This document shows, one piece after another, positions 2 through 17,141 of a stretch of DNA of 40,000 bases. A program made the translations under genes and the position numbers. The stretch's first letter is position 1. Each line of letters opens with the position of its first letter. The notes beneath the pieces were generated by a model, which was not told the origin of the DNA, searched no databases, and was given only the letters and a program-made list of their open reading frames with translations. The stretch is from contig CAWEGB010000008.1 of the NCBI GenBank assembly GCA_963808545.1, positions 539,388 through 579,387 on the forward strand, given 5' to 3'. The stretch comes from an uncultured Thermoleophilaceae bacterium (GTDB taxonomy: Bacteria; Actinomycetota; Thermoleophilia; Solirubrobacterales; Thermoleophilaceae).

Positions 2-667
2 CACTCCGGACAGCTGCGTGAGGCGCTGAGCCAGGTGCGGTCGAACCCCGCCCTGCGCGTACCTCTGACCGCCATGGCCGTCGTCGGCACGTTGGCATTC
101 AACTTCCAGGTCGTGCTTCCGCTGATGGCTCGCTATGCCTTCGACGGAGGGGCCGGGACCTACGGCGCGCTCGCCGGAGCGATGGGCGCTGGTGCGATCC
201 TCGGCGCGGTGACCACGGCCGGACGCGGCAACCCGTCGCTGACCGGGCTCGGCGCGACCGCGCTGGCCTTCGGCGCCCTCCTGGCCGCCATAGCCGCGGC
301 GCCCACGCTGGGCCTTGCGCTCGCGGCACTGGTGCTGATGGGAGCCGCTGCCATCTCCTTCACCGCTACGACGAACTCACTGCTCCAGCTCGCTGCGCCG
401 ACCGCGATGCGCGGCCGGGTGATGGCGCTCTGGAGCGTCGTATATCTCGGCTCCACGTGTGTGGGCGGCCCGATCATCGGCTGGGTGTCCGAGCTCGCCG
501 GCCCCCGCGCCGGGCTTGCGCTTGGAGCGGTCGCCACGTTCGCGACCGGTGCCGGCCTGCTCATGGGTGCCGTCCGCCGGCAGCGTGCGGGCGAAGTACC
601 GGCCGCGCATGCCTCCTACGGCGCCTCCGGCGCTCAGACGCGCGCCGGGCGCTTCATCGTGCGATAG
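2..667 (+). CDS. MFS transporter, C-terminal part (5' end outside window)
   Basis: Frame 2 is open from nt 2 with no stop, so the gene starts upstream. The translation is about six Ala/Gly/Leu-rich hydrophobic helices, typical of the second half of a 12-TM MFS (EntS/DUF894-like) protein. Stop at 665-667. Confidence 0.7.
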   Translation, partial: HSGQLREALSQVRSNPALRVPLTAMAVVGTLAFNFQVVLPLMARYAFDGGAGTYGALAGAMGAGAILGAVTTAGRGNPSLTGLGATALAFGALLAAIAAAPTLGLALAALVLMGAAAISFTATTNSLLQLAAPTAMRGRVMALWSVVYLGSTCVGGPIIGWVSELAGPRAGLALGAVATFATGAGLLMGAVRRQRAGEVPAAHASYGASGAQTRAGRFIVR

Positions 668-1731
668 ACGAACTCGTCCGTCGGCCCCGACTCGCGTGCC
701 GAGACGACGCGGTCGTGATGCGGCGAGAACCGGCAGACCGGATCCGTGGCCGCCGCGTCGCCGGTGAGCCGCAGCGCCTGGCAGCGGCAACCGCCGAAGT
801 CCACCTCCTGGCGTCCGAGCGGGCACGTGCGGCATGGCTCCTGCATCCAGTCCGTCCCCCGGAAGCGGGCGAACGCGTCGGACTCGCTCCAGATCCACTC
901 AAGCGGATGCTCGCAAACGTTGGCGAACTCGAGCCCCGGGATCGTCGACGCCGCCTGGCAGGGCAACACATCGCCGTTCGGAGCGACCACAATCGCCGTC
1001 CGGCCCCAGCCACCCATGCATGGCTTCGGCAGGTCCTCATAGAAGTCCGGGAGCACCCAGAGGACGTCGACCTTGGGGCCGACCCGCTCGCGGAAGCGCC
1101 GGACCGCTTCCTCTGCGCGCCGCAGCTGCTCCCAAGATGGCATGAGCGCCTCCTGGTTTGGGACCGCCCAGCCGTAGTACTGCGTATTCGCGAGCTCGAG
1201 CCGCTGCGCCCCGAGATCGATTGCGAGATCGAGCAGCTCCTCGATCCGATCGAGGTTCTGCCTATGCAGCACGCAGTTAATCGTCAGCGGGAAGTCCAGC
1301 TCCTTGACGACGTGCGCGGCCGCGATTTTCTTCTCGAACGACCTGTTGCCGGCGATGCGGTCGTTCTCCGCCGCGTCCGGGCTCTGAATGGAGATCTGCA
1401 CGTGGTCTAGCCCGGCCGACTTCAGCGCCTCGGCGCGCTCGCGGGTGAAGTGGATCCCGGCGGTGATCAGCGACGAGTAGAGGCCGGCGTCGCGCGAACC
1501 CGAGCAGAGCTCGACCAGATCGCGGCGCAGCATCGGCTCACCGCCCGTGAGCGCGAGCTGAAGGACGCCGAGCGCGCGCGCCTGCCGGAAGGTGCGGGTC
1601 CAGTGCTCGGTCTCGAGTTCGCGGCGGTACTTCGCGGCGCCGATGTCGAGCGGGTTCGAGCAGTATGGGCAGTGAAGCGGGCACTGGTAGGACAGCTCGG
1701 CGATCAGCGTTGACGGCCTAAGCAGCTGCAT
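634..1731 (-). CDS. pqqE: PqqE, radical-SAM/SPASM peptide cyclase for PQQ biosynthesis
   Basis: 365-aa ORF starting at ATG 1731. N-terminal radical-SAM CxxxCxxC (CPLHCPYC), GGEP motif and C-terminal SPASM Cys cluster (CRTCP..GGCRCQA). Last gene of a pqqABCDE-ordered block, overlapping the pqqD end by 14 nt. Confidence 0.95.
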   Translation of the reverse strand: MQLLRPSTLIAELSYQCPLHCPYCSNPLDIGAAKYRRELETEHWTRTFRQARALGVLQLALTGGEPMLRRDLVELCSGSRDAGLYSSLITAGIHFTRERAEALKSAGLDHVQISIQSPDAAENDRIAGNRSFEKKIAAAHVVKELDFPLTINCVLHRQNLDRIEELLDLAIDLGAQRLELANTQYYGWAVPNQEALMPSWEQLRRAEEAVRRFRERVGPKVDVLWVLPDFYEDLPKPCMGGWGRTAIVVAPNGDVLPCQAASTIPGLEFANVCEHPLEWIWSESDAFARFRGTDWMQEPCRTCPLGRQEVDFGGCRCQALRLTGDAAATDPVCRFSPHHDRVVSARESGPTDEFVYRTMKRPARV

Positions 1732-1981
1732 CGACCACCAGGCCTCTCTGAGTCAGGCCGTCGACCAGCCCTTGAACGTCATCTCGTAGATCGGAGTCCT
1801 CGTAGCGCGCCGAGAGGGTGCCGACGATTTCGTCGACCGAGCGCTCCCCGTCGCACAGCTCAAGCACCGCCGCCGCTGTGGGGTTGAGCCGCACGGCCCC
1901 CTCGGGGACCAGCAGCACGTGCTCCTCGCGCACCTCGTCATATTGAAGCCGCGCGCCGGTGACGAGCCGGGGGCGGGTCAC
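1718..1981 (-). CDS. pqqD: PqqD, PQQ precursor-peptide chaperone
   Basis: This is the C-terminal 87 codons of the 341-aa track ORF. GTG at 1981 forms a GTGA overlap with the pqqC stop. The sequence (..[29 protein letters not shown]..) is PqqD-like. The upstream part of the track ORF is an alternate frame of pqqC. Confidence 0.85.
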
Positions 1982-2715
1982 GCGTCCGGCCCCGACGGCT
2001 GCGTCTCGCCGCGCTCGATGGCCTCGAGCTGTGCCCACAGCATCTCGGTCTTGAAGCGGAGCGCGGCGACGGCAGTCTCCTGCTGCTCGCGGGTTCGGCA
2101 GCGCTCGACGGTCAGGTCGAGGGCGTACTGCGCATCGCGTGGCGCCTGCACGAGCCGTGTGCGGAAGTACTCGAGCCCGGCGGGGTCGATCCAGTCGTAG
2201 TGCCTCTCGAGTGCGTCGAGCCGCACCCGGATCGCGGCCGGCCCGAAGAGCTCGGTGAGCGATGACGCGACCGCCTCGATCCACGGCTTCTGGCGCGCAA
2301 AGTTCACGTAGGCGTCGACCGCGTAGCGCACGGCGGGCAGCACGCGTCGCTCCGACAGCAGCTCCTCCCGCGAGACCCCGAGCGCCTCGCCGAGGCGTAG
2401 CCACGACTCGATACCCCCCTTTTCGTCGCTCCCGCCGTCGTGGTCGATGATGCGGCCCACCCACTCCCGCCTGACCTCGACGTCGGGGCAGTTTGACAGG
2501 ATCGCCGCATCCTTCAGCGGGATGCACTTCTGGTAGTAGAAGCGGTTCGCAACCCAGCGCTGGAGCTCCTCGCGCGTGAGCTCTCCCGCGTCCATTCGCC
2601 TGTGGAACGGGTGCAGGTTGTGGTAGCGCGTCCCCTGCGCGCGCAGCTGAGCGACGAACTCCGCGGGTGGCCAGGGCGCAGGCTCCGTCGTCGGTCTCGT
2701 CGCGGTCTCGCTCAT
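1978..2715 (-). CDS. pqqC: PqqC, pyrroloquinoline-quinone synthase
   Basis: 245-aa ORF with full-length resemblance to PqqC (..[44 protein letters not shown]..). ATGA overlap with the pqqB stop. Confidence 0.95.
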
Positions 2716-3608
2716 TGCTCGATCTCGAGGCCATCGTAGGCAACTTCCACGCCCGCGACTCGGACCGCCTCGCGCTCGGGGGAGTCCTCGAGCAGTATCG
2801 GGTTCGTATTGTTGATGTGGACGAGCACCGTGCGCGGTCGCTCGAGCCGCGCCAGCCCCTCGAGCGTCCCGCCCGGGCCCGAGAGCGGTAGGTGTCCCAT
2901 GTCGCGGGCGCTACGCGCCGAGATGCCGAGCCGGGCGAGCTCGTCGTCGCGCCAGAAGGTTCCGTCGACGAGCACGGCGTCGCTCGCGGCGAACCGGGTG
3001 AGCATGTCGGCGTCCAGGCGGGCGAGACCGGGAGCGTAGGTCACCACGCCGCCACTCGCTGCGTCGCGGAAGACGAACCCACTGGCCTGAAGCTCGACAT
3101 CCGACCCGTCCAGGTAGCGCGGCGCGTCGCCGCCAGTCTCGAACGGCTCGACCGTGAGGCTCGATCCTCCGAGCGGTCTAACCTGCCCCGGCTCCAGCGT
3201 CCGCCACTCGGCCCCGGAGTAGCGCTTCAGGATCGACAACACGGGATAGCCGCTCCGCAGCGCGCGCTCGACGCCCTCGGCTCCGTAGACGCACACGGGC
3301 GCCGCCGACTCACGCAGAAGCAGCAGCCCGGCGGTGTGGTCGATCTCGGCGTCGGTCAGGAGGACGCCCGCGATCGGGGGCGAGCGCACCCCCTCTGCCT
3401 GACCGGGCGCGAGCGCTTCGAGTTGCTGGCGCGCATCCGGCGAGGCGTTGACCAGAAACCACGGCCCCTCCTCACCGCGAATCGCGAGCGACGACTGCGT
3501 CCGAGGTCGCGCCCGTACACCCTCGCGCCCGGCCTCGCAGGTGCCGCAGCGACAGTTCCACTGCGGAAAGCCTCCGCCGGCGGCCGAGCCGAGAATGCGG
3601 ACGCGCAC
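2712..3608 (-). CDS. pqqB: PqqB, metallo-beta-lactamase-fold PQQ biosynthesis protein
   Basis: 298-aa ORF with a GTG start. The N-terminus [24 protein letters not shown] is characteristic of PqqB. Lies between pqqA and pqqC. Confidence 0.9.
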
Positions 3609-3629
3609 GTGGCGGAAGAACAGGTAGCC

Positions 3630-3646
3630 CCGGCGGGGGGGCGCCG
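3630..3646 (-). promoter_or_regulatory. GC-rich stem-loop between pqqA and pqqB (possible attenuator or transcript-stabilising hairpin)
   Basis: Perfect inverted repeat CCGGCG / CGCCGG with a 5-nt loop, 23 nt after the pqqA stop. No clear U-tract follows. Hairpins at this position are known in other pqq operons. Confidence 0.4.
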
Positions 3647-3668
3647 GAGGCTACGTCGGACTGCCGCT

Positions 3669-3809
3669 CTACCGGTGGTACATGTAGAGGGTGACCTCGC
3701 AACAGAGGTCGACGTACTCGAACTCGGGCTTGACCCACGTGGGACGGGTCTCCGAGGTGACCTCGGAAGAGAGGCCGACGAGCTCAAGCTCGGGCGTGAT
3801 CAACGTCAT
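3669..3809 (-). CDS. pqqA: PqqA, PQQ precursor peptide (46 codons; below the ORF-track size cutoff)
   Basis: Manual translation of the minus strand gives MTLITPELELVGLSSEVTSETRPTWVKPEFEYVDLCCEVTLYMYHR*. ATG at 3809 is preceded by GGAGGAG. The C-terminal E-V-T-L-Y is the conserved Glu-x3-Tyr PQQ core. Lies immediately upstream of pqqB. Confidence 0.8.
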   Translation of the reverse strand: MTLITPELELVGLSSEVTSETRPTWVKPEFEYVDLCCEVTLYMYHR

Positions 3810-3844: not shown

Positions 3845-4357
3845 TCAACCAAGCAGTAGGAACACACCAGACGCCACGAGCAGAGCGACTCCGGCGAACC
3901 GGACCGCGACTGCTCGACTCTGCAGCGCCGGAACCACGCGCGGGAGCACCCCGGCCACGTACAGGCCGACAAGGGCAAGCAGCGCACTGGACAGCGCCTG
4001 CTCCGCGGCGTGCCCGACGAGCGAGCCCGAGTAGTCGCTCGCCACGCCATAGGCGAGGTTGTCCATCGTCAGGGCAAATGGCAACACCCAGACAGCCCAT
4101 GACGCCGTGACCAGTCGCGACCCGGCGGCGACGACGATCAGATAGTACGCCAGCACGGCCAGTGTCCCAACCGCCAGGAACCCGGTCACACTCTCCGAGA
4201 TCGTCCAACCGAGGCCCGCCCCGATCAGGAATGCGGCGCCGTCGGCGGCGGCGAAGAGCGCGGCGAGCGGCAGGCGCCACCGTCGCTCGACAAGCGCACC
4301 GATCGCGAGGCACGCGATAAAGCTGTCAATACCAAGAAGTAAGAAACCCATGCTCAA
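3845..4357 (-). CDS. Integral membrane protein, MntP/YtaF-like (DUF204 repeats)
   Basis: 170-aa ORF with about 5-6 predicted TM helices. Two copies of the DUF204-type motif (LLLGIDSFIACLAIG and FALTMDNLAYGVAS), as in the Mn efflux pump MntP. Lies between the dehydrogenase and pqqA. Confidence 0.55.
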   Translation of the reverse strand: MSMGFLLLGIDSFIACLAIGALVERRWRLPLAALFAAADGAAFLIGAGLGWTISESVTGFLAVGTLAVLAYYLIVVAAGSRLVTASWAVWVLPFALTMDNLAYGVASDYSGSLVGHAAEQALSSALLALVGLYVAGVLPRVVPALQSRAVAVRFAGVALLVASGVFLLLG

Positions 4358-4387: not shown

Positions 4388-6079
4388 TTACTCCTCCGGC
4401 AGCGCGAATACGAACAGGGAGCTTCCCTGACCCGCCCCGAGCATCCCGGGCAAAAACCCTTCCGTCCATGCGCCCCAACCGGTCGGCACGGCGATGTACT
4501 GCCTTCCGTCGATGCTGTAGGACGAGGGGCTGCTGTGGTGGCCGCTGCCACACTGGAAGTGCCACAGCAGCTCCCCGCTCTCGGCGTCGAGCGCGTTGAA
4601 CTCCCCGGTGGGCTCGCCGGCGAACACGAGGTTGCCGCCCGTGGTCAGCACCGATGAGCACATCGGTATGTCATTCGCCCAGCGCCAACGCTCCTCACCC
4701 GTGCGCGGATCGAAGGCGCTCACAGACCCCGCCATGTCCTCGAGGTCCACGGCGACTCCCGCTCCCCAGTACGGGATGCTCTCCTTGAACTCCCTGCGCC
4801 GCCGCGTGGCCGTCGCACCGACGTCCTGCACCGGGGCGTACAACAGCTCGGTGTTCGGGTTGTAGCACGCGTGCGTCCATTCCTTGGCGCCGGCCGGCCC
4901 CGGCCAGAAGTGGACCGGGTCGCCCTCCTTGTCGGGGTAGACCTTAGGCGTCACGTTGCCCTTCTCGTCGACCTCGCCCCAGTCGATGCGGTCGACGAAC
5001 GGCGCCACCCGGACCGGCTCCATGTTCGTGCGATCGAGGATGTAGAGGAACCCGTTCTTGTCGAAGTGCGCCGCCAGCTTCTGCCCGTCGAGGTCGAACA
5101 GGATGTGCTCCATCGTGGAGTCGTAGTCCCACAGGTCGTGCGGGGTGTACTGGAAGTGCGACCGGATCTCGCCGCTGTCAGCGTCCACGGCGACGCCGGA
5201 ATCGGTGTAGAGGTTGTCGCCCTCGCGGACGCCTCCGTCGAAGTCGGGACACGGGTTGCCGGTCCCGAAGTACAGAAGGTTCAGCTCCGGGTCGAAGGTG
5301 CTCGTGACCCAGCAGTTGCCGCCACCCCGCTGCCAGGCCTCGCCTTCGGGCCAGGTCTCGGAGCCCGGCTCTCCGGGCTTCGGCACCATGTAGCACCGCC
5401 ACACGCGCTCGCCGGTCTCGCGCTTGAACGCGTCGGCGTGGCCGCGCACCCCGAATTCCCCGCCGGAGCTCCCGACGATGACCATGTCCTTTACGACCAG
5501 GGGGGCGACCGTGGCGCTCTCGCCGGCCCGCACATCGCCGTACGTCTGGTCCCAGACCTTCTTACCGGTCTCGGCGTCAAGCGCGACGAGGTGGGCGTTC
5601 AGGGTGACGACGAAGACCTTTCCCTCGGCCACGGCGACCCCGCGATTCACGTTGCCGCAGCAGAGCGACACGTCGTACGGGATCGCATGCCTGTACTGCC
5701 ACAGTTGCTCTCCGGTCCGGGCGTCAAGGGCCCAGACCCAGCCATCCCAGCCTGAGACGAACATGGTTCCGTCCACGACGATCGGAGAGGCCTCGAACGA
5801 GTATGTCGATTTGCCCGAGTGCAGGCCCACTGAGCCGCACTGGAAGACCCATGCCGGGGCAAGCCGCTTGACGTTCTCCTTGTTGATCTGGTCTAGCGGG
5901 CTGTAGCGCTGCCCGTCGTAGGCGCCGTAGTAGGTGAGCCAGTTCTGCGGTTCCGAGCGGGCGTCGAGAATGCGCTCGTAGGTGACGTCCTTGGCCACCG
6001 GCGGCGCAATGCCTTTGATGGGGCTCAGAGTTGTGTTGTCGACGGCCTGCCCTGCGTCTACGTACTCCTCGGTTGCCAT
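4388..6079 (-). CDS. xoxF: PQQ-dependent dehydrogenase, methanol/ethanol family, XoxF-like (lanthanide-type signature), no signal peptide
   Basis: 563-aa ORF. ATG 6079 has AGGAG 6 nt upstream; the track start at 6082 is TTG, and an in-frame TAG lies 3 codons further up. Motifs present: vicinal Cys-Cys (SLCCGNVNRG), GGEFGVRG, WQRGGGNCW, GTGNP and HDLWDYDS (D-x-D). Family assignment is high confidence. The xoxF label and the substrate are inferred. Confidence 0.85.
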   Translation of the reverse strand: MATEEYVDAGQAVDNTTLSPIKGIAPPVAKDVTYERILDARSEPQNWLTYYGAYDGQRYSPLDQINKENVKRLAPAWVFQCGSVGLHSGKSTYSFEASPIVVDGTMFVSGWDGWVWALDARTGEQLWQYRHAIPYDVSLCCGNVNRGVAVAEGKVFVVTLNAHLVALDAETGKKVWDQTYGDVRAGESATVAPLVVKDMVIVGSSGGEFGVRGHADAFKRETGERVWRCYMVPKPGEPGSETWPEGEAWQRGGGNCWVTSTFDPELNLLYFGTGNPCPDFDGGVREGDNLYTDSGVAVDADSGEIRSHFQYTPHDLWDYDSTMEHILFDLDGQKLAAHFDKNGFLYILDRTNMEPVRVAPFVDRIDWGEVDEKGNVTPKVYPDKEGDPVHFWPGPAGAKEWTHACYNPNTELLYAPVQDVGATATRRRREFKESIPYWGAGVAVDLEDMAGSVSAFDPRTGEERWRWANDIPMCSSVLTTGGNLVFAGEPTGEFNALDAESGELLWHFQCGSGHHSSPSSYSIDGRQYIAVPTGWGAWTEGFLPGMLGAGQGSSLFVFALPEE

Positions 6080-6122
6080 CAAGTACTCCTATCCACGGTG
6101 GTGGTTGTGCCGAGCGGTCGAT

Positions 6123-6560
6123 CTACGGTTGCGGCTGCGGCGGGCGGTCCAGACGTGCCTCCGGCGGAGCGTCCCCTTGCACGACGATCGCCGCGGTCAA
6201 GCCGCGGCCCTCGTCGTTGCCGGTACGGGAGCCGTACCAGTAGTACCCCGGGCCGTCGAGGGTGAGGTTGGCCGTCCCGCGCGAATGGTTCACCAACCAG
6301 ATGAACTTGTAGTCACCGTTGCACGGCAGGACTGCGCAATGGGTGTTCTTGTCGTCGTTGAAGAACTCGATCTCGACCTCGCCTGCATGGGGCAGGACAA
6401 GGATCCCGGGCTCGAACACCAGCTCGTCCTCCAAGATCCGGACCGTGGCGCGCATCTTGCCGTCGGGTCCCTCCTCGGCCTCCCCGATGCTTCCCCGCCC
6501 GAGCATTCGACCCAACATCGCGCCATTTTGCTTATCCAACAACTCCGCAATCTTGGCCAC
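6123..6560 (-). CDS. Small cupredoxin-like protein lacking the canonical type-1 Cu ligand set
   Basis: 145-aa ORF. GTG start with GAGGA 5 nt upstream. Protein-like composition, unlike the Arg/Pro-rich shadow ORFs. GEVEIEFFNDDKNTHCAVLP and GYYWYGSRTGNDEGRGLTAAIVV resemble the first-His strand and the C-terminal strand of cupredoxin_1-type domains, but the C..H..M ligands are replaced. No signal peptide. Confidence 0.55.
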   Translation of the reverse strand: MAKIAELLDKQNGAMLGRMLGRGSIGEAEEGPDGKMRATVRILEDELVFEPGILVLPHAGEVEIEFFNDDKNTHCAVLPCNGDYKFIWLVNHSRGTANLTLDGPGYYWYGSRTGNDEGRGLTAAIVVQGDAPPEARLDRPPQPQP

Positions 6561-12825: not shown

Positions 12826-13763
12826 CGTCGGTTCGCGTGAAGGCGCCCGCGCGTCTGCACATGGGCATGCTTGACGCCGCCGGCGGCGGCGTCCGGCGCT
12901 TCGGCGGCCTCGGGGTCGCCCTCAGCCGCCCCGCCGCGGTCGTCGAGGCGAGCCCGAGCGACGACGTGACCGCCGAGGGCCCTGATGCCGAGCGCGCGCT
13001 CGCCATCGCCCGTCGCTCTAGGGAGGCGCTCGGGCTCTCGGGCGGCGCGCACGTGCGCGTGATGGAGGCGATCCCGCCTCATGTCGGCCTCGGCTCGGGG
13101 ACCAAGCTCGGGCTCGCCGTGGCGGCGGCCCTGGCGGCGCTGGCGGGGCAGACGGCGGAGCCCGAGACGATCGCCCGCGCGGCCGGGCGCGGCGCGCGCT
13201 CCGCGGTCGGCCTGTGGACATTCGTCCTCGGCGGACTGGTCGTGGAGGGCGGCCGGCGTCCCGGCGTGGAGCGCCCAGCCCCGCTGCTCACTCGTCATGC
13301 CATGCCCGGCGAATGGCGCTGCGTGCTCGTGATCCCAGACGCTGAGCCGGGACTCTCGGGGCGGGCGGAGGAGCAGGCGTTCGGGGAGCTGCGTCCCGAC
13401 CCCGACCGCGCCGCGCTGATCGCCCAGCTGGTGCTGACCTCGCTGCTCCCGGGGCTCGCCGAGGGCGGCCTCGCCGAGTTCGGGGACGCCCTCACACGTA
13501 TCCAGCGGCTTGTGGGTGAGTCGTTCGCCTCCGTTCAGGGGGGTGTGTTCCATCCGCGCGCGGGCGACGTTGTCGACACGCTGCTCCGCCTTGGGGCGGC
13601 GGGCGCGGGGCAGAGCTCGTGGGGACCCGCCGCTTACGGGATCGTCGAAGACGAGCCGGCGGGGCGCGAGCTTGCCCGCGGTATCGAGGCCGAGCTGGCC
13701 GGGCGCGGCCGCGTGGAGGTCGTGGGCTTCGACAATCGTGGCGCTCGAGTGGAGGCGGGATGA
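12822..13763 (+). CDS. Beta-ribofuranosylaminobenzene 5'-phosphate (beta-RFAP) synthase family protein, GHMP-kinase fold
   Basis: 313-aa ORF. GHMP motif PPHVGLGSGTKLGLAVAAA and N-terminus VKAPARLHMGMLD, as in archaeal-type beta-RFAP synthases (MptG). A paralogous kinase function cannot be excluded. Confidence 0.75.
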   Translation: MTSVRVKAPARLHMGMLDAAGGGVRRFGGLGVALSRPAAVVEASPSDDVTAEGPDAERALAIARRSREALGLSGGAHVRVMEAIPPHVGLGSGTKLGLAVAAALAALAGQTAEPETIARAAGRGARSAVGLWTFVLGGLVVEGGRRPGVERPAPLLTRHAMPGEWRCVLVIPDAEPGLSGRAEEQAFGELRPDPDRAALIAQLVLTSLLPGLAEGGLAEFGDALTRIQRLVGESFASVQGGVFHPRAGDVVDTLLRLGAAGAGQSSWGPAAYGIVEDEPAGRELARGIEAELAGRGRVEVVGFDNRGARVEAG

Positions 13764-14464
13764 GGCTGCTGGTGAGCGTCATCGACGCCGACGAGGCGCG
13801 CGTGGCCGTCGACGCGGGCGTCGACATCGTCGACGTCAAGAACCCCGCCGAGGGCTCGCTGGGCGCCCCCGCCCCCGGAGTGATCGAGCGAGTCCGGGAG
13901 GTCGTGCCGCCGGAGCACCCGGTCAGCGCCGCGATCGGCGACCTGCCAAACCTGCCCGGCACAGCCGCGCTCGCCGCGCTGGGCGCAGCGCGCTCCGGCG
14001 CCGCGTACGTGAAGGTCGGGCTGTGGGGGACGTCTACCACGGATGAGGCCGTGGCGGTCCTGCGCGCGGTGCGCGACGCGCTCGACGGCGGGGCGGCCGT
14101 GATCGCGGCCGCCTACGCCGACGCCGAGCGCGTGCCCGGCGGGCCTCTGCCGCCCGGGGCCGTCGTCGCGGCCGCACAGAGCGCGGGCGTAGGGGGCTGC
14201 CTGCTCGACACCGCGCTCAAGGACGGCCGCGGGCTGTTCGAATGGCTCACCCCGGAAGCGCTCGCGGCGCTGGTGGCCGAGGGGCACGCCGCGGACCTCG
14301 AGATGGCGCTCGCCGGAGCCCTGCACGCCGACGACCTGAGCGTTGTCCGGGGGACCGGCGCCGACATAGCCGGCGTTCGCTCGGCGGCCTGCCGCGACGG
14401 TCGGCGCACGGAGCCGCTCGACGCCGAGCGAATCGAGCGGCTGCGCGCCATGTGCCAGCGCTAA
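13760..14464 (+). CDS. (5-formylfuran-3-yl)methyl phosphate synthase (MfnB)/DUF556 family protein
   Basis: 234 codons from ATG 13760 (ATGA overlap). MRLLVSVIDADEARVAVDAGVDIVDVKNPAEGSLGA.. is typical of the MfnB family, which makes the furan moiety of methanofuran/methylofuran. Confidence 0.8.
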   Translation: MRLLVSVIDADEARVAVDAGVDIVDVKNPAEGSLGAPAPGVIERVREVVPPEHPVSAAIGDLPNLPGTAALAALGAARSGAAYVKVGLWGTSTTDEAVAVLRAVRDALDGGAAVIAAAYADAERVPGGPLPPGAVVAAAQSAGVGGCLLDTALKDGRGLFEWLTPEALAALVAEGHAADLEMALAGALHADDLSVVRGTGADIAGVRSAACRDGRRTEPLDAERIERLRAMCQR

Positions 14465-14504
14465 CCAGGCCCGGCGTTCCCGATCGGGTCCGTTGACGAC
14501 TCGG

Positions 14505-15437
14505 CTACGCGGCCACGTGCGGCTCGATGAGCCCGACCGCCGCCAGCCGGTGGTGACACATGTCCGCGATGTGCTCGCGCGTCGCATCCGTGACGGCGTC
14601 GCCCCAGACCGAGGCGGCCTCCTCGGCCCGCGCCAGCAGGTCGTCGATGAGCTCTCGGGAGGGCTGGGCCTCGATCAGGCAGCGCAGGCCGAAGCCGATG
14701 TGCCAGCGCTCGTCGAGCTCGACGCGCCGAACGCCCTCGCGTACCCCGGGCAGGGCGTCGTCGGCCAGGTCTTCGCGCAGCGCGTGATGCGCGGCGTCGA
14801 AGATGATCCCCTCGAGCACCATGTGGTAGAGGGCGATGCCCTCGCTCAGCCCGGCGCGCCCCGCAGAGAGCTCGGCGGCCAGCGCGGGCAGCCGCTCCTC
14901 AAAGAGCTCGAGCACGCCGGGGGGGACGTGGGCCCGCGCGGCGGCACGCCGCTTGGCCGGGGTGTCTCCGGGCACGCCGAGCACCTCGGCGGCAATGCGG
15001 TCGAAGAACCGCGCGTGGCGGTCCTCGTCGCGGCGCTGCAGGAAGAAGACCCAGGCCATCAGGCTCTCCTGGGAGGCCAAAGTCGCCTCCCTGGCCGCTT
15101 CGGCGAACGGCGTGATGTGCTCGGAGACCGCGTCCTCGGCCACGCAGAAGCCGGCGAGAAGAGTCATCAGGCGGCGGCGGCGCGCATCCGGAAGCTCCGG
15201 CCACGCGCGCGTGTCCTGGGTGAGGTCGATGGCCGCCGGATTCCACTGCAGGCGGGCCACGACCTTCGAGAAGAAGCTGGGCCAGAAGCTGCGCTTTGGG
15301 AGGACGAAGTGCCCGCCCACCGTACGCTCCCAGAACTGCTCGTCAGCCATGGCGGGCAAGGTACCAAGCGAGATCCGATGTTCCCAGATCTCGTCGAGCG
15401 GTTGCGCCCGTGTGCGGACGCTAACTAGGCGACGCAC
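14505..15437 (-). CDS. Ferritin-like diiron-carboxylate protein, ribonucleotide-reductase R2-like (R2lox/R2c-type, Phe at radical-Tyr position)
   Basis: 310-aa ORF (GTG 15437; alternative ATG 15350). R2 hallmarks: W-NPAAIDLTQD, ligand motifs CVAED, DEDRH (ExxH), VLEGIIF and DERWH (ExxH). The residue four after the first His is Phe (HARFF). No R1 subunit gene nearby. Confidence 0.75.
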   Translation of the reverse strand: MRRLVSVRTRAQPLDEIWEHRISLGTLPAMADEQFWERTVGGHFVLPKRSFWPSFFSKVVARLQWNPAAIDLTQDTRAWPELPDARRRRLMTLLAGFCVAEDAVSEHITPFAEAAREATLASQESLMAWVFFLQRRDEDRHARFFDRIAAEVLGVPGDTPAKRRAAARAHVPPGVLELFEERLPALAAELSAGRAGLSEGIALYHMVLEGIIFDAAHHALREDLADDALPGVREGVRRVELDERWHIGFGLRCLIEAQPSRELIDDLLARAEEAASVWGDAVTDATREHIADMCHHRLAAVGLIEPHVAA

Positions 15438-16131
15438 GCCCCCGGGTCGGCGCCGCCGCCCGTGGCGTCACGAGCGTCCCGTCGCTGCTGCCGTGCTCGA
15501 GCAGTGTCACGAGCCGAGCCGGCTCGCGGCCGTCGAGCACCCACGCCTCGACGCCGGCCGCGTGCAGCGCCTCCGGCAGGTGCTGGTCGACTCCCGCGGC
15601 TCGCCCCGCCGCGCGCAGCTCGGCGAGCTCGCCCACGCTCAGGCGGGCGAGCGGCTCGCCGTCCGCCGGCCAGTCGCGGTAGAGGCCGGCGACCGGCTTG
15701 AGGAGCACCAGGCGCGCGGCATGCCCGGTACCGGCCACCCAGGCGGCGATCGAGTCGGACGTGACCGTCCAAGAGGCGGGCAGGGGGTCCCCCGCGAGCA
15801 GTGCCGCCGGCAGGAGGATCGGCGTCCCCCCGCGCGCGGCGGCGGTGCGGGCTGCCTCGAGGTCCGTGCACCGAACCGCACCGGGGATTAGGTCGGAGAG
15901 GAGCCAGCCGAACTGATCCATCGCGAGGATCGCCATCCGGTGGGCCGTCGCGGCCCGCAGGGCGAAGCGGCTGTCGTGCTCGCGGACGGCGTCCGCGAAA
16001 GCCGCGCCGCCCGGCACGACGAGCAGCGGGTGGCGGGCTCCGGCGTCGCCGATCACGCGGCACAGCGTCCGCAGCGCGCCGCCGCCCGCTTCGCGGGCGA
16101 GCCCGCCGCCGACCTTGACGACGGTCAGCAC
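15421..16131 (-). CDS. Amino-acid kinase (aspartate/glutamate/uridylate kinase) family protein, cofactor-island type
   Basis: 236 codons from GTG 16131, overlapping the upstream gene stop by 7 nt. N-terminal VLTVVKVGGG.. and ..LLVVPGGAAFAD.. are AAK-fold motifs. The upstream 320 aa of the 556-aa track ORF is a Gly/Arg-rich shadow frame. Confidence 0.7.
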   Translation of the reverse strand: MLTVVKVGGGLAREAGGGALRTLCRVIGDAGARHPLLVVPGGAAFADAVREHDSRFALRAATAHRMAILAMDQFGWLLSDLIPGAVRCTDLEAARTAAARGGTPILLPAALLAGDPLPASWTVTSDSIAAWVAGTGHAARLVLLKPVAGLYRDWPADGEPLARLSVGELAELRAAGRAAGVDQHLPEALHAAGVEAWVLDGREPARLVTLLEHGSSDGTLVTPRAAAPTRGRASPS

Positions 16132-17141
16132 CGCGAGCGCAGCCGGCCGGCCAGGAGTTCGGCGAGCGCGGCGGCGGGCGCCGCGTCGCGTTCGGCCGCG
16201 CTCCACGGCAGCTCGGTGACAGCGCGCCCCAGGCGCTCGGCGGCGTCGCGCGCCAGGAACGCCCCCGCGCCCAACGGGACCACGGGCGGGTCGCCCTCGA
16301 AGCGCCCGCTCACCCGGCGAACCGCCGCCTCGACCTGGCGCACCTGCTCCGCGTGCAGGAATGCGGCGATCGCATCGATCTCCTCCGCGGTTATTTGCTC
16401 GGCGTCGGCGCACACGAGCCGCGCCACGCGCTCGCGCGCGAACTCGACGGTCGCGGGACGCCCGTCCGGGGTGGCGCAGCTGTACGCGCCGGGCGCGAGG
16501 TGGCCGAGGATCAGATGCACGTCGGCGCTGATCGCGAACAGCTCCGAGGCGACCGGGCAAGAGCTGTCGCGCACCGGCACCCTCGGCGCGATCGCCGCGA
16601 GGTTTGTGCGCAGCGCGCCGGTGTAAACGAGCTCGCCGGCCAACAGCCGGTCGAGGTCGGTGCGACCGGTGGCGGCCACCCGACCCGCGGCGATCGGAAC
16701 GACGTCCGCGGTCGTGCTGCCGACGTCGAGCATCAGGGCGTCGGGGTACAGCGCAGCCACCGCGAGCGCGCTGGCCATCCAGTTGGCGGCCGCGACTTCG
16801 TCTGCGCGCGCCCGCGCCTCCGGGAAGGGGACGACCTCCCCGGCGGTCGTGAAGGCGAGCAGCAGGGGGCCGCCGAACGCCTCCTCCGCGGCGTCGAGCA
16901 CGAATCCCACGCCCTCGCGCTTGCTGCGAAACGCGTCCGAGAGCTCCGCGGTCGTGGTCAGTGCCACCGCCTCCACAGGCCCCGGCGCAATGCCCGCGAC
17001 GACCTCGCGAAGCACCGCCGCGAGCGCCTCGCGGTCGCGCCAGACCTCGAAACGTCGCGAGACGGTGCGCCGCTCGACCCCGTTGCGCCACACCGCCTTC
17101 GTGTTGGCCCCGCCCACGTCGAGGCCGATCACGCCGCCCAT
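16125..17141 (-). CDS. Hydantoinase/oxoprolinase-like ASKHA protein (probable H4MPT-linked C1 transfer pathway protein)
   Basis: 338 codons from ATG 17141 with GGAGAGGG 6 nt upstream. MGGVIGLDVGGANTK.. and ..LMLDVGSTTADVVPI.. are ASKHA phosphate-binding motifs, as in the hydantoinase-like proteins of methanopterin islands. Confidence 0.75.
   Translation of the reverse strand: MGGVIGLDVGGANTKAVWRNGVERRTVSRRFEVWRDREALAAVLREVVAGIAPGPVEAVALTTTAELSDAFRSKREGVGFVLDAAEEAFGGPLLLAFTTAGEVVPFPEARARADEVAAANWMASALAVAALYPDALMLDVGSTTADVVPIAAGRVAATGRTDLDRLLAGELVYTGALRTNLAAIAPRVPVRDSSCPVASELFAISADVHLILGHLAPGAYSCATPDGRPATVEFARERVARLVCADAEQITAEEIDAIAAFLHAEQVRQVEAAVRRVSGRFEGDPPVVPLGAGAFLARDAAERLGRAVTELPWSAAERDAAPAAALAELLAGRLRSRC

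Follow-up and report, generated by a model that had tools for sequence, protein, structure and literature searches.

What does an R2lox-like di-metal oxidase do in the middle of a methylotrophy island? This question is raised by a stretch of 40,000 nucleotides (the window) from the genome of an uncultured Thermoleophilaceae bacterium (GenBank assembly GCA_963808545.1, contig CAWEGB010000008.1, positions 539,388 to 579,387 of the forward strand). The window is the methylotrophy island of a Thermoleophilaceae-type metagenome-assembled genome (MAG), and on its minus strand lies a gene for a protein related to R2lox, the R2-like oxidases that bind a ligand, which have been structurally characterised since 2009, without a known substrate, partner or physiological role (PMC9314684). 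The original prediction, made from the letters of the window, coupled this gene to the neighbouring genes for the synthesis of tetrahydromethanopterin (H4MPT) and methylofuran, and suggested an oxidative step in the synthesis of these cofactors or of a p-aminobenzoate (pABA) or furan precursor. Comparison of about 170 related loci corrects that tempting but weak assignment. By its sequence, the gene encodes a real two-metal protein of a distinct, R2lox-derived subfamily, and the association common to both clades of this subfamily, in two bacterial classes, is the module of a cytoplasmic pyrroloquinoline quinone (PQQ)-dependent alcohol dehydrogenase (ADH) and the pqq genes.

An R2-type protein of the ferritin fold had been predicted, and this identification holds. 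The protein matches PF00268 (29.4 bits, under the gathering score of 33.6) and the NCBIfam models of R2lox (best 79.3 bits against a cut-off of 194 for NF006200, the others 44–76 bits against 274–346). Its best matches among the sequences of the PDB, with E values from 1e-14 to 1e-10, are R2lox proteins, the Geobacillus R2loxI variants foremost; true R2 proteins appear only at E > 0.09. When an AF2 model of the protein (pLDDT 89.2, pTM 0.87) was compared with the PDB using Foldseek, ranks 1–33 were all R2lox (TM 0.68–0.74), followed by the R2c of Chlamydia. Among R2a, R2c and R2lox, the protein is of the R2lox type, yet distinct from canonical R2lox: a long, fully supported branch parts the subfamily from the canonical paralogues in the tree (a quick LG+G4 search, with SH-aLRT support only). 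The family is small, with 66 clusters at E ≤ 1e-30 among 1.84 billion library representatives; at E 1e-30 the A1 profile also catches canonical R2lox paralogues, the threshold of the family itself being about 1e-60 (1e-45 in named genomes).

The canonical R2lox proteins with which it can be compared are R2loxI of Geobacillus kaustophilus (4HR0), Rv0233 of M. tuberculosis (3EE4/4AC8), and those of S. erythraea (7QBP) and Sulfolobus (6QRZ/7QBK). It shares with them the ferritin/R2 fold, the E/ExxH/E/ExxH ligands, the positions of the Val/Tyr cross-link and a Phe at the site of the radical Tyr. It differs from them in being only about 22–25% identical, with scores far under the curated cut-offs (194–346), in having Phe or Leu for the tunnel Ala171 and Trp for Arg in the motif DERWH, in belonging to a shorter subfamily (250–281 aa), and in the conserved context of PQQ-ADH, pqq and methylotrophy-island genes.

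These residues were followed, in the numbering of the 281-aa protein, through alignments of 18, 32 and 165 sequences, the largest of which comprises 162 relatives (101 rows of the window's clade and 61 sister or basal rows) and three canonical paralogues of the same genome. The six metal ligands that had been predicted are E72, E109/H112, E180 and E214/H217, and are invariant except for E72D in 13 of the 162 relatives. W36 and D46 of the N-terminal R2 signature, and F116 in place of the radical Tyr of class Ia, had also been read correctly, and are invariant or nearly so. The cross-link positions are occupied by V75 (161/162) and Y175 (160/162), which correspond to V72 and Y162 of the G. kaustophilus protein (GkR2lox) in a HMMER alignment to 4HR0/6F65. 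In R2lox, this Val/Tyr pair becomes cross-linked through an ether bond and determines the preference of site 1 for manganese. The metals of the window's protein are probably Mn and Fe.

The most telling position is in the tunnel. Ala171 of GkR2lox lines the fatty-acid tunnel, is a conserved Ala in R2lox and a Phe in all R2 groups, and the A171F mutant of GkR2lox keeps the fatty acid from the metals (PMC6399176). The equivalent position (E180+4) is F184 in the window's protein. Within the window's clade it is Phe in 87 and Leu in 14 of the 101 rows, in the sister and basal rows it is Leu in 45 and Phe in 16 of the 61, and the three canonical paralogues from this genome have Ala. In addition, W216, which lies beside the ligand His in DERWH, is invariant across the family, where canonical R2lox has Arg. 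Apart from this family, the genome has three further weak PF00268 matches, of which the two scanned against NCBIfam scored 125–144 bits on R2lox models. One canonical paralogue (G000 C11:456780–458621, minus strand) lies in an open frame of 614 codons, whose N-terminal ~330 residues do not resemble R2 and possibly form a fused domain of carrier type; the remaining two are at C6:168008–168967 and C2:61827–62804.

In which company is the gene found? Neighbours were called by tblastn with the window's genes, such that genes absent from the window are visible only where they were separately scanned, and the survey covers sampled genomes, including incomplete MAGs. In the window's order, the R2lox-like gene is almost always inside a C1/methylotrophy island, as had been expected: of 41 related genomes, 12 have an orthologue (at least 70% identity) and 12 have Mch, and both occur together in 11. 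However, the position of the gene inside the island varies, even within a genus. In a tally of 80 species-level genome loci of Solirubrobacterales, pqqE adjoins the gene in 39 (upstream on the same strand in 26, convergent in 13), mfnE is upstream on the same strand in 16–17, xoxF or its partner (MSMEG_3727-like) is adjacent in about 10, mptA in nine, a divergent mfnF or a HisA-like gene in three, and mtd or orf26894 in three; in six loci, none of the island genes is within 1 kb. As the final cistron, the gene follows either pqqE or mfnE in an operon, its start overlapping the stop of pqqE by 1 nt in six loci, and that of mfnE by 8 nt in seven loci of lineages other than the window's. The window's own protein falls in a tree subclade of stand-alone genes between mptA and pqqE. 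H4MPT and methylofuran genes, namely mfnE and mptA, do adjoin the gene in part of the loci, but pqqE is the commoner neighbour, and at least six arrangements exist, of which the mfnE position is one. Four of five genomes with pqq and the R2lox-like gene that were checked for the ADH partner have TIGR04339 nearby. In the pqqE-coupled arrangement, the R2lox-like gene is followed directly downstream by a conserved small open reading frame (ORF) of 63–80 aa (MKYLTDGIHLYEIADQRTV...; L081:10857–11048; L096:11146–11388).

Outside this order, the family has a sister clade, which was sampled from 80 metagenome loci and belongs to Pseudonocardia species and Nocardioidaceae. The sister clade is 41–49% identical to the window's clade, and each of the two has an aLRT of 100. 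Its only recognisable neighbours are xoxF, MSMEG_3727-like and pqq genes, and no H4MPT or Mfn genes were seen in flanks of up to 10 kb; other neighbours are an S9 peptidase, an MntP-like protein, a Zn-ADH and an acetate-transporter-like gene. In P. broussonetiae (CP053564), for example, the order is S9 peptidase, M75, DyP, DUF1232, rubredoxin, R2lox-like, one unknown gene, MSMEG_3727-like, PQQ-ADH, pqqA–E and Na_Ca_ex, and neither Mch nor MfnB was found in the complete 7.3-Mb genome of this species, the one sister-clade genome checked. The R2lox-like gene adjoins the PQQ-ADH/MSMEG_3727/pqqABCDE module both in Solirubrobacterales and in Pseudonocardia/Nocardioidaceae. Of the sister-clade or basal loci with upstream DNA, 29/59 have a rubredoxin gene directly upstream on the same strand.

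Several details of the Pseudonocardia-type clusters recur. The rubredoxin gene encodes 69 aa and ends 11 nt before the start of the R2lox-like gene (L193:9780–9989; also L121, L130, L140, L162 and others). A gene for a DPP-IV/S9 prolyl-oligopeptidase lies a few kb upstream of the R2lox/ADH/pqq clusters (L121:6952–9246, L130:5334–7793, L193:4316–6421), and could encode a protease that trims PqqA in organisms without pqqF/G. A 255-aa protein with no Pfam match on record is encoded convergently with the R2lox-like gene (L193:10749–11516, L130:10827–11567 and L140:255–992, all on the minus strand), and a weak relative of it is present in L052.

The reverse comparison concerns genomes with the H4MPT genes. 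Of 401 genomes of the window's class, 40 have Mch, and in 37 Mch-positive genomes (families f7, f8 and f10) no match to the family profile was found at E ≤ 1e-30, nor was PqqC found in these families. The mfnF-like gene (TIGR03123) is present in all five of these 37 genomes that were tested. Therefore, the H4MPT and methylofuran gene sets work without the R2lox-like protein. In some genomes, mch itself is broken into adjacent fragments, two to four in number and in different frames (G031 C4:421331–422264; G018 C1:21128–22062; G207 C12:37810–38763), which are either frameshifted pseudogenes or assembly errors.

What, then, could the protein do for a PQQ module? The reading that we tentatively prefer is that it is an O2- or peroxide-reducing oxidase, fed by a protein partner, which serves the PQQ-ADH/PQQ module. 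It would be a cytoplasmic, O2-activating di-metal protein that has kept the six R2lox ligands and the Val/Tyr pair, and in which the Phe/Leu plug of the tunnel would prevent oxidation of a metal-bound fatty acid. Instead, the buried site would reduce O2 or peroxide with electrons from a protein. Exchange of electrons with a protein is favoured because of the plugged tunnel, the invariant Trp beside the ligand His and the rubredoxin partner; in the Pseudonocardia sister clade, the donor would most likely be the rubredoxin encoded directly upstream. The most likely role would be that of an oxidising outlet, or a protective oxidase, for the actinobacterial cytoplasmic module of PQQ-ADH and PQQ synthesis. 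This can be seen as analogous to rubrerythrin and alternative oxidase, in which a di-iron carboxylate protein uses electrons from rubredoxin or quinol to reduce peroxide or O2. The likeness would lie in the principle only (reduction of a buried di-metal carboxylate site by a redox partner of small size) and is purely functional: here, the rubredoxin is separate, and in the window's clade mostly absent.

Several observations weigh against this reading. Within the window's clade, only two loci out of 121 (L071 and L073) have an adjacent rubredoxin gene. The coupling to mfnE is tight in the 16–17 loci that have it, with the 8-nt overlap in seven. A smaller substrate is compatible with the Phe/Leu plug, the sister clade shares only ~44% identity and may serve another purpose, and basal members of the family are found in unrelated contexts (e.g. 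in genomes G145, G419, G383 and G423). To our knowledge, an R2lox has yet to be shown to turn over catalytically in any way. Furthermore, a search of 331 genomes of the phylum found the MSMEG_3727-family gene in G000, G031 and seven members of family f24, and these seven TIGR04339-positive genomes have no R2lox-like gene at E ≤ 1e-45. Of the five tested further, all have PqqC and none has Mch; four f24 clusters (L194–L197) have the same ADH/partner/pqq cluster and the signal-less N-terminus of the ADH, with neither a rubredoxin nor an R2lox-like gene. The R2lox-like protein is dispensable for PQQ synthesis and ADH in the f24 genomes, and would therefore be an optional accessory of the PQQ module rather than a core part. 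Family f24, with a GC content of about 60–64%, is a third actinobacterial lineage, and a natural control for the contribution of an accessory oxidase.

A more novel reading, which we regard as rather unlikely, is that the signal-less, lanthanide-type PQQ-ADH of Actinobacteria has its missing oxidising partner in the R2lox-like protein, together with rubredoxin where this is encoded, in a soluble cytoplasmic chain from alcohol to O2. If true, this would be the first physiological reaction for an R2lox-type protein. The subfamily bears on how a PQQ dehydrogenase, having apparently relocated to the cytoplasm, gets rid of its electrons. It is defined by a sequence signature and by a recurrent context (PQQ-ADH, pqq and, in part, rubredoxin), and its carriers include cultured Pseudonocardia species and Solirubrobacter pratensis URHD0082, which opens its function to genetics and biochemistry. 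In the literature, no paper was found on R2lox together with methanol dehydrogenase or PQQ, nothing relevant was found on Pseudonocardia with xoxF or MSMEG_3727, and a paper on Solirubrobacter and xoxF does not mention the R2lox-like gene.

Of the other explanations, the one that survives best is an extra enzyme of PQQ biogenesis, e.g. one that carries out an additional O2-dependent oxidation or hydroxylation of a PqqA-derived intermediate with electrons from rubredoxin. In the 26 loci where it follows pqqABCDE on the same strand, the R2lox-like gene is the last gene, mostly overlapping by 1 nt or separated by no more than 40 nt, and in L140, L148, L158 and L176 it lies between the ADH gene and pqqB. 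Nevertheless, we consider this explanation unlikely, although worth keeping in view: pqqA–E are all present in the window, we know of no oxidative step that is missing from PQQ synthesis, the gene is convergent with pqqE and not co-transcribed in 13 loci, and seven genomes with pqq and ADH, as well as G407 with PqqC, are without it. A substitute for PqqC or PqqB was also considered and rejected, as the window has an intact copy of each of pqqA, B, C, D and E.

The oxidative step in the synthesis of dephospho-H4MPT, methylofuran or a pABA/furan precursor, proposed by the original prediction, has become improbable. In its favour are the position downstream of mfnFE, here and in the 16–17 loci with their seven 8-nt overlaps, the nine loci with an adjacent mptA, and the near restriction of the window's clade to genomes that carry the combined island. 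Against it, mfnE is the neighbour less often than pqqE (16–17 against 39 of the 80 loci), the position is variable inside one genus, the 37 Mch-positive genomes of the same class manage without the protein (with the mfnF-like gene in 5/5 tested), and the sister clade resides in PQQ-ADH/pqq clusters, its carrier P. broussonetiae having neither Mch nor MfnB. Moreover, we know of no O2-dependent step in the H4MPT, methylofuran or pABA pathways. CADD and AurF are also di-metal, O2-activating enzymes tied to pABA chemistry, CADD being a self-sacrificing Fe/Mn pABA synthase of Chlamydia with a haem-oxygenase-like fold; however, neither PDB sequence searches nor Foldseek revealed any similarity to CADD or AurF, pabAB is already present in the window, and there are carriers of the R2lox-like gene without H4MPT.

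A third possibility, doubtful to a similar degree, is that of an ordinary lipid or hydrocarbon R2lox that is carried along by the island as a passenger. Among solved structures, the protein's nearest relatives are hydroxy-fatty-acid-binding R2lox, and R2lox paralogues are abundant in related genomes, with three more in the window's own. But the association with xoxF and pqq holds in two clades from two classes, the long, fully supported branch and the F/L184 and W216 signature set the subfamily apart, and the tunnel position appears to be blocked by Phe or Leu.

Finally, a small subunit of a class Ic-type ribonucleotide reductase (RNR), working with an R1 encoded elsewhere in the genome, is hardly conceivable: the protein resembles the R2c of Chlamydia trachomatis (NrdB, 1SYY/4D8F) in its Mn/Fe-type ligand set, in Phe at both the radical site and the cavity-closing tunnel position, and in the rank of R2c structures directly after R2lox in Foldseek, but it keeps the Val/Tyr pair, its PF00268 score is under the gathering cut-off, and it is not an RNR subunit because the only large subunit in the genome is the B12-dependent NrdJ. 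The absence of an R1 gene from the neighbourhood, noticed in the original prediction, extends to the whole genome, which is 95.7% complete and has no class I NrdA/NrdE: the single PF02867 match is a class II NrdJ (NF005122, 1369 bits against a cut-off of 859).

The arrangement in the window itself had seemed to speak for a translationally coupled unit of three genes. The ORF proposed for the R2lox-like gene, 14505–15437 on the minus strand, exists, and the 7-nt overlap between the mfnF-like stop (TGA, 16125–16127) and the mfnE-like start was confirmed. The 17-nt overlap between mfnE and the R2lox-like gene was not, as it needs a GTG start at 15437 that homologues do not support: nearly all of the 120 closest homologues are 281–295 aa long and cover the query from its codon 30. 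The likely start is ATG 15350, because the homologues begin at its equivalent, and it lies 70 nt after mfnE. A TACCTT box is found 7 nt before this ATG. The 36 nt before the ATG are nearly identical in locus L018, where the R2lox-like gene is convergent with pqqE, and most of 13 aligned loci, whose upstream genes differ, have a GGnTACCyTT box 6–9 nt before the ATG. Scans of 14300–15700 for consensus sigma-70 promoters and terminators found nothing; in Actinobacteria, TANNNT −10 boxes are known and leaderless mRNAs are frequent. Since the upstream block is conserved whatever the neighbouring gene, the R2lox-like gene probably has its own promoter and is expressed from a leaderless or near-leaderless mRNA. 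We infer that the gene has moved together with this promoter. In the window, the arrangement of mfnE and the R2lox-like gene is probably not even one of translational coupling, and the gene is probably merely parked downstream of mfnFE.

Coordinates of the R2lox-like gene and of the neighbouring features in the window
Feature	Position	Strand	Remarks
R2lox-like di-metal oxidase gene	14505..15350	−	281 aa from likeliest start, ATG 15350
In-frame extension to alternative GTG 15437	15387..15437	−	Probably untranslated; would give 17-nt overlap with mfnE
Conserved block 5′ of the R2lox-like ATG	15351..15386	−	Candidate own promoter, with −10-like TACCTT at 15358–15363
mfnE-like gene, amino-acid-kinase family	15421..16131	−	PF00696 63.5 bits; NCBIfam MfnE 99.8, under cut-off; GTG start 16131
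mfnF-like gene, TIGR03123 H4MPT-linked C1 transfer pathway protein	16125..17141	−	306.7 bits, over cut-off
mfnB (4-HFC-P synthase)	13760..14464	+	PF04476 235.8 bits; convergent with the R2lox-like gene, 40-nt gap
pqqA-B-C-D-E operon	634..3809	−	ORFs and motifs; TIGR02111 PqqC in own genome
Signal-less XoxF/PedH-type PQQ alcohol dehydrogenase	4388–6082	−	N-terminus without hydrophobic leader
MSMEG_3727-family PQQ-associated protein	6123–6560	−	Precedes ADH; TIGR04339 245 bits

The island as a whole begins with pqqABCDE, a gene for an MntP-like membrane protein, and those for the PQQ dehydrogenase and its MSMEG_3727-family partner. These are followed by DHPS-like, SDR, CitG-like and ATP-grasp genes, mch, DUF447, an RFAP-synthase-like gene, mfnB and the R2lox-like gene, and then by the mfnE-like, mfnF-like and HisA-like genes, mptN, pabAB, the fhc genes, mtd and mptA. 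Membrane proteins that resemble metal transporters (MntP; Na_Ca_ex/CaCA) are repeatedly encoded within or next to the ADH/pqq clusters in the two clades (window 3845–4357, minus strand; L121:5741–6322; L130:18828–19403; L193:17464–18528; L070:11124–12047), and are candidates for the handling of Mn, Ca or lanthanides for a cytoplasmic set of enzymes.

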